Positions 12,361 to 17,354 of a DNA stretch of 64,000 nt are shown here, one piece after another. Each line of letters begins with the position of its first letter. Position 1 is the first letter of the stretch. The notes under the pieces were generated by a model. That model was not told the origin of the DNA, made no database searches, and saw nothing but the letters and a program-made list of their open reading frames with translations. This DNA is from Escherichia phage kvi. The position numbers were made by a program, and so were the translations under genes. Location: the sequence record MN850615.1, one strand, 5' to 3'.

Positions 12361-12468
12361 ACTGTCGCCGGATACGTTCCATCCATAATGACCCCAACTA
12401 AAACACATGGTAACAGTTCCATTGTGACGGCGTACCGTCACTTCGTCAAATTCGGGGATACTTCGCAT
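12307..12468 (-). CDS. small ORF (53 aa) ending ..CINKMIEYFTKRGF
   Basis: hand-translated from ATG 12468; not in track. Confidence 0.35.
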   Translation of the reverse strand: MRSIPEFDEVTVRRHNGTVTMCFSWGHYGWNVSGDSEAECINKMIEYFTKRGF

Positions 12469-12484
12469 AATCATAATAATTTCC

Positions 12485-13876
12485 TCAAATATAGTCTACT
12501 CGATACCTCGCACGGGTAACACCAACATATAATAACTGCATTGCCAATTCAAAGTCAACATTATCTGTACACATGCAAGGGGTATACAGGAACACGCGGT
12601 CTACGCTGATTCCTTGTGACTTATGAATAGTGCAAGCTGGTAATGCTTTTACATTCAAGAACATACGCTTCATCGTCCAGAAAGAATCCCAATCCGGTTT
12701 AAAATTCGGATTCTCTTTCTTCATTTCGCGATATTGTCCGGCGACCGTATTCAGATAGATAGAGAAAATGTTCTTCTGACGTTGTTCTGTCAGAATGTTG
12801 ATTTCTACTAAATCTGGTTTATCTGTAGTTATTCCGACTGCATCTAAACCGACTTTCTGATTTAGGATTTCTTTGTCTTCGTCATCATCGACGCTTTCCA
12901 CTTTCAGAGTATATCCTAAAACTGGTTGCGGATCTACCCCCGTGCAACGTAATGTAAATTCGCGCGGTATAACCTCTTTAACTCGGATCATCTCACCATT
13001 GTTAAAAATAACATTGGGGATCTTCTTCCCGCGTTCATCTCGCAGATATTCGATCAATGGTTCCTGAGTAACCAGAATTTCATCTACAATCACTGGTTCA
13101 TCGGTGTTATAAACGCGCTTACGTACAATTTCATTGAGTTTTTCGACGCTCTTGTTAGTGTAAGCCAGAATACGGTTTTCTAGAAGGTCTTCCGGCGTTT
13201 TAACGGTTTCGAAATAATGCTTCATAAACTCCGGCAGAGTTGAGCTATGGAATACACCCTCGTTACCGCACTGCTTTTCGAATACCCATTTACCATTACG
13301 GACAGCGGTCGCCACATCAATTATTGGCGCATTAGATCGTTTAATCTCTGTAAGTTCTACATTCTGAAACCTTTCATCGGTGAAGAAAGGAGAGATCGAC
13401 GTTGCGCCGCTCGGATCAACTGGTCGTAACTGGTACAGATCACCCACGGCAATAATAACAATTCGACCGTTGATACTCTTCATGAGAATATCAAATAGTT
13501 TCTTATCGACCATACTCGCTTCATCAACAATGATGATCTGAACATCATCTAGCTTAGGAGTATCTTTTTGCTCAAATACTTGAGTATCTTCATAGTTGGT
13601 CGGGTTTAGTCGCAGTAGTGCATGTAAAGTAAATGCTTGACGACCTACCGCTTTACTCAAAACTTTTTTAGCCTGGTGGGTAGGCGTTGCCAAAACCACA
13701 CCAGTTACACCACGGCGGACCATTTCCTGAACAATGAATTTCATCATTGCGGTTTTACCAGTACCCGCCGCACCACGGACAGTTGTATGCTTCTTTTGTT
13801 CAATGCGTTTCATTAGAACATCAAAAGCATGTTTTTGCCCGTCTGTTAACATATCGAAAGTTAATACTCTGCTCAT
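12485..13876 (-). CDS. dda: Dda-type SF1 DNA helicase
   Basis: Walker A GAAGTGKT, helicase motifs, C-terminus ..LYVGVTRARYRV..; recalls T4 Dda. Confidence 0.9.
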   Translation of the reverse strand: MSRVLTFDMLTDGQKHAFDVLMKRIEQKKHTTVRGAAGTGKTAMMKFIVQEMVRRGVTGVVLATPTHQAKKVLSKAVGRQAFTLHALLRLNPTNYEDTQVFEQKDTPKLDDVQIIIVDEASMVDKKLFDILMKSINGRIVIIAVGDLYQLRPVDPSGATSISPFFTDERFQNVELTEIKRSNAPIIDVATAVRNGKWVFEKQCGNEGVFHSSTLPEFMKHYFETVKTPEDLLENRILAYTNKSVEKLNEIVRKRVYNTDEPVIVDEILVTQEPLIEYLRDERGKKIPNVIFNNGEMIRVKEVIPREFTLRCTGVDPQPVLGYTLKVESVDDDEDKEILNQKVGLDAVGITTDKPDLVEINILTEQRQKNIFSIYLNTVAGQYREMKKENPNFKPDWDSFWTMKRMFLNVKALPACTIHKSQGISVDRVFLYTPCMCTDNVDFELAMQLLYVGVTRARYRVDYI

Positions 13877-14190
13877 TATCCTAAAATCCTCACCTTGCGA
13901 ACACAGATAGTATTGAGTTCTCGCCGTACCCGTTCTTTTTCATATTCAGGAATTTTATATTCGATACCATCCCGAACAATTTCAGAAGACCGGATTATGC
14001 CAAATTTTCGTTTAGGTACAACCTTGTATTTCGGTTCACCCGCCAATAGACTCTCACAATAATCTATCTGATCACACATTGACGCTAACGCAGCATCATG
14101 TGTTTCGCAAGTTAGGACGCGACCTTTCGCGTCCACTGAGTATTGAAAGAATCCGTCTTTATCACGATAACATACAGCAAATACATGCAT
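13876..14190 (-). CDS. hypothetical protein (104 aa)
   Basis: track ORF. Confidence 0.5.
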   Translation of the reverse strand: MHVFAVCYRDKDGFFQYSVDAKGRVLTCETHDAALASMCDQIDYCESLLAGEPKYKVVPKRKFGIIRSSEIVRDGIEYKIPEYEKERVRRELNTICVRKVRILG

Positions 14191-14945
14191 TATAAACCTA
14201 CCTTCGCTTTCATCAATTCAATCCACGACGCATCAATCGGAAGCCCGTATTTCACGCGTTCTTTTTGTGCTGGCGTTAAGTTCTCATACTTAGAAAGAGA
14301 TTCAATCAAAACGCTGGTATATTTTAGCACGATTTCGGTATTGTTTGCAATAGCCTTAAGTTTTTCTTCTTTCTTGTTGATTTCGCTAAGGGCTTGCTTG
14401 AGATCTGCAATTTTCTGATAACGTTCTTCCATACGGAAGAGAGTATTTTTAATCGCTCGCTCGGCTGCCTCTGCTTTCTCCGGTTCGTTGTGCTTTTTGT
14501 GGCGCTCGATTGCTAATTTCTTTTCTTCGATTGCCATTTCCTGATTTTTGATGCGATTCTCGTTAAGTTCGATCCACTCGATGTACTTCGCACGTAGGGC
14601 AATTTCATCATCAGAAAGTTTACCGTTAGTTCCTAGTTCCTGGATCTCTTTAAGAGATTCGATAGTGTGATTGCCACGGAAAGAATTGTATTTCAGTTTA
14701 ACCGGAATTACATTGCCATCAACATATCCCAGATTGCAATCAATGCGCTCTAAGGAGAGTCCGTCATCACCTTCACCGAAAGCCTCACCTGAATAGGCAC
14801 AATGAGTCTGGCGGTAAATGTTACGAACAGTGACTAAGCTCATAGAGAAGTCTTTGTTGCGACGTGAAGCACCAGCCATGATAGAGTTCAGCCGGAAAAC
14901 AACCAACGCCAATTCTTCGTTAGATTTAAAAGCAAACAGTTTCAT
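14190..14945 (-). CDS. hypothetical protein with long C-terminal coiled-coil-like region (251 aa)
   Basis: track ORF; K/E-rich heptad-like C-terminal half. Confidence 0.5.
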   Translation of the reverse strand: MKLFAFKSNEELALVVFRLNSIMAGASRRNKDFSMSLVTVRNIYRQTHCAYSGEAFGEGDDGLSLERIDCNLGYVDGNVIPVKLKYNSFRGNHTIESLKEIQELGTNGKLSDDEIALRAKYIEWIELNENRIKNQEMAIEEKKLAIERHKKHNEPEKAEAAERAIKNTLFRMEERYQKIADLKQALSEINKKEEKLKAIANNTEIVLKYTSVLIESLSKYENLTPAQKERVKYGLPIDASWIELMKAKVGL

Positions 14946-15006
14946 AATTGATTCTCCTTAGTTGGCATGTGTGTATTATTGTCTATCTGGTTTGTGCTGT
15001 CAACAC

Positions 15007-15510
15007 TTAAATTAAAGAAAATTTGTAAATCTCTATCAGATCGCCGTTACACGCGTAAACTTCCTCGATCTCATCAAGGATCATGGTCGTCCCTGTCTTG
15101 TATATGCACTCGCGCTCATCTGCCAACATAGCATACAAAGACAGTCGAGTAGTCGGATTGTCATACTCTTTAGACACCACTCGGTCAATAGCATGTTCGT
15201 AATAATTCATGCAAGGCTTGGTAGGTTTTATTGCAATAATCTTTCCTGTTGCATAAACATCGGTCGCAAAGTCCTCTGCTGTTGATTGCAGTGGCGTAAA
15301 GCTCATAGGACGCTCTACAACGAAAGAATCGCCTACAATTAAGGTATCCAGCTTACGACCTTCTCTTTTGCTCACACCGCGATACAAGGCTTCATGATGC
15401 ACTAACCGCTCAGTCTTTTCGATCAATCCATTAAGGATCGACATATCGATATTTTCTTTAGAGTTCATCACTTCATCAATGATGTTAAGTTCTTCTGGTG
15501 TAAATTGCAT
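15007..15510 (-). CDS. putative mono-ADP-ribosyltransferase (ModA/ModB-like)
   Basis: ART-like triad Y-R-G.., ..S-T-A.., ..E-R-E.. with typical spacing; sits between dda and gene 56 where T4 has modA/modB. Confidence 0.5.
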   Translation of the reverse strand: MQFTPEELNIIDEVMNSKENIDMSILNGLIEKTERLVHHEALYRGVSKREGRKLDTLIVGDSFVVERPMSFTPLQSTAEDFATDVYATGKIIAIKPTKPCMNYYEHAIDRVVSKEYDNPTTRLSLYAMLADERECIYKTGTTMILDEIEEVYACNGDLIEIYKFSLI

Positions 15511-15543
15511 AATAAAAAAGCCTCCAATCTTTCGACGGGAGGC
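15511..15543 (-). terminator. rho-independent terminator between the -10 of promoter 15544..15572 and the start codon at 15510
   Basis: stem gcctcc/ggaggc (15520..15543) followed on minus by T6. Confidence 0.5.
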
Positions 15544-15572
15544 ATAATAAAACCATTATAGAGTAGTGTCAA
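15544..15572 (-). promoter_or_regulatory. sigma70-type promoter (TTGACA-N17-TATTAT)
   Basis: rc of 15567..15572 TTGACA; rc of 15544..15549 TATTAT. Confidence 0.5.
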
Positions 15573-15579
15573 CTAATTT

Positions 15580-16104
15580 TTAGTAGCCTCGTTCTTGACG
15601 GGCGAAGTTTTCAGCATTTTTCAGATAGTACAGAATAAAGAGTTCTTGAGCGTCAATACCCAGCGGGATCATCTTTGACAGAATGAAGTGGATAGCGTCC
15701 ACAAATTCAAATTTCACTTCAAGCTGATCTTCCGGTGACAGTTCAGAGAATTTACGCGCTCGCGCTTCCCCGTGGTTCTTTTTCCACATTTTCCAGATTG
15801 CACTTGCATCTTTACCATTGGACATTCCACCCAGCGATGTGTAAAGCTCTCGTGTTTCGTCTGCGATAGCGTCATCCATCCGCTGCATCCAATCCAGCAT
15901 TTCACCGCAAGTCTCTAGCTTAGTTGGATTTGGGACCCAATCAAATTTTTCGGATAGTGCAACCTGCAAACCAGTTTGCATTTCGAGCATCACCTGAAAC
16001 GGATCTTTACCTTCTGCAATCGCGTGATGATATGCGGCGATAGCCGCGTTAATATCTTTTTCGTTAACCAGACCAGCACAAGAATTAAATTCTGACATAT
16101 TCAC
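15580..16104 (-). CDS. 56: dCTP pyrophosphatase-like protein (MazG-type, T4 gp56-like)
   Basis: 174 aa; C-terminal ..LYYLKNAENFARQ.. and overall pattern recall T4 gp56; adjacent to primase. Confidence 0.6.
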   Translation of the reverse strand: MNMSEFNSCAGLVNEKDINAAIAAYHHAIAEGKDPFQVMLEMQTGLQVALSEKFDWVPNPTKLETCGEMLDWMQRMDDAIADETRELYTSLGGMSNGKDASAIWKMWKKNHGEARARKFSELSPEDQLEVKFEFVDAIHFILSKMIPLGIDAQELFILYYLKNAENFARQERGY

Positions 16105-16112
16105 CTCATTAA

Positions 16113-17141
16113 TTAAAATTTACAATATTTCATAAACCGCATTTTAGCCATCAGACCTTGTACGGTGTTCTCTTTGATATATTCCATGATCTGGTCGCGT
16201 GTAGCGCCCTCGTCCTGAATCATGGCGTTAACGTCTTTAGAATGCCACGGGCAACGGTCCCACAAAACAATCTTTTCCCCTGCATTGATAAACTTTTCCA
16301 GTCGGTGCATTGTATCGGCAGACCGTGGTTCCGCATCAAGTACAAACACTCGCTGATCAGGGAAAGGAATTTCATCTAATCCCAAAGTACCGCCAGTAAT
16401 TGCACACCCGTTATCAATAAACAATGAATCGATCGGACCTTCTAAGAAATACACTGGTTTACTCGGATCGGCGCGTTCAAGACCATAGACCTTACTCGCT
16501 AACTCATGAGTTTTAATCGTCATATATTTGGTCTTTCCGTAATCCTTTCTCAATGCTCGCCCCTGAATGGATTCTATCTTGTTCTCGCGGTTAAAGATAG
16601 GAATCACTAAACGCGGTTCAGGTTGTGGATTCTTGAAAGTATCAGCCTTAATGTGATTTGCTACCTTTTGCCATTCTCTCGTGAAATACAGAAGATCCCA
16701 TTTATCGTGAGGAATACAGCGATCACTGACATACTTTATTATAGGATGATTAGCCGGAAGAGTATCTAATCTCTCGCAGAAAGGCAATGTTTGCACTTTC
16801 TTAATCTCCGGCTTTTCTACCTTTTTCAGTGGCTTGAACGTGGTGTTCTTGTGGTCGCCTTGTTCCTTCCGTCGTTCTATAAGCCATTCCCTGAATAGGT
16901 CCGGCTTATACTGTTTGAGAAATTCACCTAACGGCTGATTGTAGTTACAGTTGAAACAGCCGCAACGCAAACTATCCTTATAGGTATAGATACGGAATCG
17001 CGCTTGAGTATGATTTTTCTTTGAGTCACCGCAGATCGGACAACTACAGACCAGCGTAAATGAGCTAGTATGCAACCGTTTAAAATTTCGTTCGCCGTAT
17101 ATGGCTTTTTCCGCTATTTCATAATCTGCGTAGTAAATCAT
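16113..17141 (-). CDS. 61: DNA primase
   Basis: 342 aa; N-terminal zinc-binding CPICGDSKKNHTQARF; TOPRIM-like core; position next to gene 41. Confidence 0.85.
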   Translation of the reverse strand: MIYYADYEIAEKAIYGERNFKRLHTSSFTLVCSCPICGDSKKNHTQARFRIYTYKDSLRCGCFNCNYNQPLGEFLKQYKPDLFREWLIERRKEQGDHKNTTFKPLKKVEKPEIKKVQTLPFCERLDTLPANHPIIKYVSDRCIPHDKWDLLYFTREWQKVANHIKADTFKNPQPEPRLVIPIFNRENKIESIQGRALRKDYGKTKYMTIKTHELASKVYGLERADPSKPVYFLEGPIDSLFIDNGCAITGGTLGLDEIPFPDQRVFVLDAEPRSADTMHRLEKFINAGEKIVLWDRCPWHSKDVNAMIQDEGATRDQIMEYIKENTVQGLMAKMRFMKYCKF

Positions 17142-17150
17142 ATTAACCTC

Positions 17151-17354
17151 TTATAGCTCAAATTTCATGAAAGTTCCCACACTTTCATTTTCATTCTCTC
17201 CGTTCTCATCTAAGCCAAATTTGTAGACACTACCATCTGGCGATGTGTAAGAGAATACACGAAAACGGCCTACCGAATCAAGTTCTGTAAATTCATATTC
17301 TTTTCCGGCTTCAAAAAGTGCATATGTGCTTTTAAGACATTTCATCGTAATCAT
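17151..17354 (-). CDS. hypothetical protein (67 aa)
   Basis: track ORF. Confidence 0.45.
   Translation of the reverse strand: MITMKCLKSTYALFEAGKEYEFTELDSVGRFRVFSYTSPDGSVYKFGLDENGENENESVGTFMKFEL

Follow-up and report, generated by a model that had tools for sequence, protein, structure and literature searches.

A predicted short Mod-family ADP-ribosyltransferase encoded between srd and gene 56 in Escherichia phage kvi

The mod locus

The sequence considered here is a window of 64,000 nucleotides from Escherichia phage kvi (MN850615.1). The gene of interest, mod, lies on the minus strand with the following neighbours.

12485-13876: Dda helicase (PHROG 325 at 2e-154; Pfam SH3_14, 'Dda helicase SH3')
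13876-14190: dda.1/Y01A homologue
14190-14945, minus strand: Srd anti-sigma factor (PHROG 1400 at 6e-74)
15007..15510, minus strand: mod, an ATG-initiated ORF of 167 aa, predicted Mod-family (R-S-ExE) mono-ADP-ribosyltransferase
15580-16104, minus strand: gp56-type dCTPase/NTP pyrophosphohydrolase
16113-17141: gp61 primase

The gene order in the window is thus 61-56-mod-srd-Y01A(dda.1)-dda. The order in T4 is 56-segF-soc-mrh-...-modB-modA-srd-dda.1-dda. A preliminary description of this DNA had claimed synteny with T4, with mod between dda and gene 56, and both the neighbours and the T4 order bear this out. In T4 the genes for ModA and ModB stand in tandem; kvi has a single Mod at this locus. 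A tblastn search of the 64-kb window with T4 ModA, T4 ModB and kvi Mod found no second Mod paralogue. Two metagenomic T4-like contigs that carry a short-form mod (L018 and L020, 50% and 40% identical) have the order 61-56-(...)-mod-Y01A-dda.

Several smaller points about the neighbours are worth recording. In both contigs the Y01A/dda.1 homologue comes directly after mod, without srd between them (L018:5001-5907, L020:5001-5803). In L020, gene 56 and mod are separated by inserted genes of Mom-like, Tad2-like (weak) and N6/N4-methyltransferase type. In the kvi Srd homologue, the N-terminal third has additional matches to PHROGs for HNH endonuclease, endonuclease VII and 'decoy of host sigma70' (E 1e-10 to 1e-12). 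For gene 56, the mechanical ORF opens with a GTG that precedes the ATG annotated in RB49 (519 nt, 172 aa) by two codons, and the true start is probably that ATG (MSEFNS...).

There is no further upstream in-frame start for mod, so the protein is truly short. Small ORFs on the plus strand overlap the gene; they were considered as genes and rejected as unsupported.

The gene is not new. A megablast of 12400-17200 against GenBank phages matches 76 records. The closest genome is Escherichia phage FL37, which is 99.8% identical over 4.8 kb, and RB49 is 98.2% identical. By sequence the window is that of an RB49-like Krischvirus (Straboviridae). RB49 ModB (AAQ15305.1, AY343333) is 100% identical to the kvi protein, and the RB49 record labels the counterpart CDS 'modB, ModB ADP-ribosylase'. 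Among phage records searched by tblastn, 56 have a mod copy at >=99% identity and 2 more have one at 95-99%. Most of the matches listed bear one of the names ADP-ribosylase, ModB, 'ModA or ModB ADP-ribosyltransferase' or 'RNA polymerase ADP-ribosylase'. Like its Krischvirus orthologues, RB49 ModB is encoded between srd and gene 56, and nothing sets it apart from kvi Mod. Judged on sequence, kvi mod is the RB49 modB gene in a sibling isolate. Since RB49 and dozens of relatives carry the annotation, the gene must be regarded as already known and routinely annotated, under the name modB since RB49 was deposited. The locus therefore has little weight as a discovery, as automated pipelines routinely call an ADP-ribosylase here. 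In the literature searched, no published assay of an RB49-type Mod protein was found.

Membership in the Mod family

The preliminary description proposed that mod is a ModA/ModB-like ADP-ribosyltransferase (ART) candidate. This is supported by profile, by pairwise homology to the T4 proteins, by the R-S-ExE residues, by predicted fold and by synteny. It rested the call on short motifs plus position, and here the evidence was understated; the similarity spans the full length. The profile comparison with ART families that it suggested gave a clear answer. PHROG 832 ('RNA polymerase ADP-ribosylase') matches residues 2-153 at E=1e-20. Precomputed assignments put PF26816 (Mod_ADP_RT) on a 99%-identical cluster representative and on every other homologue recovered. 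BLASTP aligns kvi Mod with T4 ModB at 33% identity over the N-terminal 113 aa (E=8e-11) and with T4 ModA at 23% identity over 159 aa (E=2e-6). The copies of Pfam-A and NCBIfam that we used gave no ART match for kvi Mod. This negative is uninformative because T4 ModA and ModB are also unmatched in the same copies. The sole Pfam match of kvi Mod is a sub-threshold one to DUF5507. Membership in the Mod family of phage ADP-ribosyltransferases (PF26816 / PHROG 832) is supported by these comparisons.

The family is small. A phmmer search against 1.84 billion representatives recovered only 10 relatives at E<=1e-3. One of these ten, P0019, was rejected as a Mod relative. It is a metagenomic protein of 2067 aa that matches in five short stretches (E=2e-7), looks repetitive and has repeat-like Pfam matches (Rep_Org_C, IgG_binding_B). 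Composition or repeats probably account for this match, and the protein is probably not an ART.

Catalytic signature and predicted fold

The translation of 15007..15510 contains, in order, ALYRGVSK (R44), MSFTPLQSTAEDF (S70-F-T72) and LADERECIYK (E132-R-E134). The codons of the key residues are as follows.

15379..15381, minus strand: R44, the R of LYRG; aligns with T4 ModB R73 and ModA R72; strand beta-1
15301..15303, minus strand: S70 of the S-F-T motif, the 'S' of R-S-E; invariant alignment column
15109..15117, minus strand: E132-R133-E134, the ExE motif; E134 aligns with T4 ModB E173 and ModA E165

E132 aligns with E171 of T4 ModB and E163 of T4 ModA. The three ART regions had been reported in this order (R44 of LYRG, then SFT, then E132-R-E134), and all are found. 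The region named for the motif serine was also right, but the serine is S70 of 'SFT', which is what the family S-x-T/S aligns with, and not the one in the nearby 'QST'. R44, G45, S70, E132 and E134 are invariant in Mod alignments of 4, 13 and 20 sequences, the last with a mean column identity of 36%. Two of the ModB counterparts have known roles. Mutation of ModB R73 abolishes both ADP-ribosylation and RNAylation (PMC10468400). R73 is described as NAD-binding and E173 as essential (bioRxiv 10.1101/2025.07.11.664405).

One can imagine that kvi Mod is a catalytically dead protein with an ART fold (a pseudoenzyme or binding protein), or that the motifs are there by chance. The weakness of the PDB evidence lends this some colour. 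A sequence search of the PDB with the single kvi Mod protein gave no match, and a search with family profiles gave only a weak match to XopAI, at the ExE segment (E=0.019-0.07). A comparison of folds was used instead. In the predicted structure R44 sits on a strand at 42-45, and S70 sits on a strand at 69-72 that is followed by a helix at 75-85. The arginine of the model lies on beta-1, the S-x-T motif on beta-2 ahead of the helix, and ExE at the start of beta-5. The model is a confident prediction of an ART fold of the R-S-E clade type. Chance is excluded because the homology is full-length and the fold agrees with it. None of the R, the S and the two E residues varies from clade to clade, even where identity falls to 23%, and an active enzyme would be expected to show this pattern. 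We consider a dead enzyme or chance motifs highly improbable.

The C3-like/VIP2/iota-toxin R-S-E mono-ADP-ribosyltransferases (CPILE-a 5gtt, VIP2 1qs1, Vis 4xzj, C3stau2 1ojz) have 8-20% sequence identity and no sequence-level match to kvi Mod. They are secreted bacterial toxins or effectors that act against eukaryotic or rival cells, whereas kvi Mod would be a phage early protein inside an infected bacterium.

ModA, ModB or neither

Since the gene carries the name modB, it is worth asking what that name means. T4 ModB (P39423) is an Arg-specific ADP-ribosyltransferase and RNAylating enzyme in the same family, PF26816. Its R73, E171 and E173 align with R44, E132 and E134 of kvi Mod, and the two share a neighbourhood and an early-gene context. 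If kvi Mod were a true ModB orthologue, it would ADP-ribosylate and RNAylate S1, L2, EF-Tu and trigger factor. ModB is the best pairwise match in T4 by E value, its clade HMM scores higher than that of ModA, and the RB49 record uses the label modB. However, the tree does not place it there. A neighbour-joining (NJ) tree was built from 26 Mod proteins of T4-like phages and metagenomes (BLOSUM62 distances, 171 trimmed columns, 200 bootstraps). kvi Mod clusters with proteins of 161-176 aa (L005, P0002, P0003, P0016, P0017 and P0018) with 100% support. Neither the T4 ModA clade nor the T4 ModB clade, each with 100% support, includes these short forms, and support at the deeper nodes is only 6-53%. 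The clade HMMs score kvi Mod as follows.

ModA: 20.7 bits
ModB: 37.8 bits
JS98-like: 52.4 bits
S16-like: 58.4 bits
VR5b-like: 64.9 bits

Three clades other than those of T4 therefore outscore ModB. The lengths differ too. T4 ModB has 207 aa against 167 aa in kvi Mod. The alignment shows that the short forms are without the N-terminal extension of about 30 residues found in T4 ModA and ModB, and without the insertion of 8-12 residues just upstream of ExE (12 aa in ModB). Finally, a single Mod gene at the kvi locus does not fit a simple ModB counterpart. We argue that true orthology to ModB is unlikely, and the RB49 name 'ModB' is a best-match label.

The other option is that kvi Mod is functionally ModA, the ADP-ribosyltransferase of RNA polymerase alpha Arg265. 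It would then modify Arg265 on both alpha subunits and damp UP-element-dependent promoters, both host and early. ModA belongs to the same family, its R72, E163 and E165 align with the kvi residues, and the alignment with it is full-length (159 aa). PHROG 832 and many records bear the name 'RNA polymerase ADP-ribosylase'. The early promoters of RB49 contain A-rich tracts that resemble UP elements (PMC1524935), so a modifier of the alpha-CTD would make sense. However, kvi Mod lies outside the 100% ModA clade and the ModA profile scores lowest of all the Mod clades tested, while the database names are inherited labels and not tests. A ModA function seems to us rather improbable.

The conservative statement, as far as sequence goes, is that kvi Mod is a Mod-family ART of a lineage distinct from both T4 ModA and T4 ModB. 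For this short lineage with its single gene copy, orthology to either enzyme cannot be demonstrated. The region before ExE governs substrate recognition in R-S-E ARTs. Since both the N-terminal extension and the pre-ExE insertion are absent, the substrate range of the T4 enzymes is not transferable to kvi Mod. One can go further and suppose a third functional lineage, made up of the short Mods of 161-176 aa that occur in Krischvirus and in a small number of T4-like phages from metagenomes. One enzyme would then combine or replace the roles of ModA and ModB, and the truncated N-terminus and shortened pre-ExE loop would give it a target set or a capacity for NAD-RNA (RNAylation) unlike that of either T4 enzyme. 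We offer this only as a tentative idea.

Proposed function and targets

With the lineage treated as distinct, a function can still be proposed. We hold it very probable that the product of kvi mod is a mono-ADP-ribosyltransferase of the T4 Mod family and the R-S-ExE clade, small, cytoplasmic and expressed early. Direct support comes from homology, from the conserved motifs, from predicted fold and synteny and from a promoter-like site; the activity, arginine specificity, early timing and targets are what we infer from them. In R-S-E enzymes the R and the S-x-T hold NAD+ and the glutamate catalyses. By this scheme R44 on strand beta-1 and the S70-F-T72 motif on strand beta-2 would bind NAD+, and E134 would be the catalytic glutamate. 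The first position of ExE is E132 and not Q, which predicts arginine as the likely acceptor, as in ModA and ModB. The known acceptors are RpoA R265 for ModA, and S1 R139/R142 and trigger factor R45 for ModB. The enzyme may thus move ADP-ribose, and possibly NAD-capped RNA as with T4 ModB, onto arginines of host proteins. This modification would take place in the first minutes of infection and could help redirect host transcription, translation or both to the phage.

By analogy with ModB, the targets may be proteins of the translation apparatus (S1, EF-Tu, trigger factor), and we put this at close to an even chance. The analogy with ModA, where the target would be R265 of RNA polymerase alpha, we rate at about half that. 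Other or mixed targets would account for the remainder.

The sole non-trivial point left by this already annotated gene is its short lineage, for which orthology to a T4 enzyme is not demonstrable. The value of the gene is modest: at 167 aa its product would be a minimal Mod enzyme found in nature, and its lineage is not that of T4 ModA or ModB. RNAylation by ModB now attracts biological and biotechnological interest, and so a sensible comparison for target choice and NAD-RNA acceptance would be a compact, single-copy relative whose substrate-recognition region differs.

A promoter-like site and a predicted hairpin upstream of mod

The space between gene 56 and mod holds two features that adjoin each other.

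15544..15572, minus strand: promoter-like site of sigma-70/early type, GTTGACA-N17-TATTAT; 11/12 consensus positions, preceded by an A-rich tract
15514..15543, minus strand: GC-rich hairpin GCCTCC...GGAGGC (15520-15543) and a run of six T (15514-15519), in both MFE and centroid folds

Along the minus strand from the gene 56 stop to the mod ATG, the sequence reads AAAAATTAGTTGACA-N17-TATTAT, then directly GCCTCCCGTCGAAAGATTGGAGGC, TTTTTT and ATTATG. It must be noted that a promoter scan of the region gives 6 sites against 5.6 in shuffles. RB49 early promoters have a G at -33 and are A-rich from -40 to -44 (PMC1524935), and the site before mod fits this description.

The 3' arm of the hairpin holds the Shine-Dalgarno sequence GGAGG (15521-15525), 10 nt before the mod ATG. 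If transcription began about 7 nt past the -10 hexamer, the start would lie within the 5' arm, and therefore transcripts from this promoter could not form the hairpin. RNA that reads through from gene 56 could form it, and this would either terminate the RNA or mask its ribosome-binding site. A promoter-like site that abuts a hairpin is also present at L005:738-800, L018:4939-5000 and L020:4921-4980, upstream of short-form mod genes whose proteins are 75%, 50% and 40% identical to kvi Mod. The position of the hairpin is kept in these four lineages, with one compensatory pair (U-A to C-G) among the n=4 sequences. In L020, the most distant relative, the Shine-Dalgarno sequence is outside the hairpin. 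This implies that the conserved feature would be the overlap of terminator and promoter, for which four sequences are too few as proof.

A second promoter-like site, GTTGACA-N17-AATAAT, lies at 14975-15003 on the minus strand. It also has 11/12 consensus positions, begins 4 nt after the mod stop and precedes srd. With this site, every one of these small early genes would seem to be served by a putative promoter of its own.
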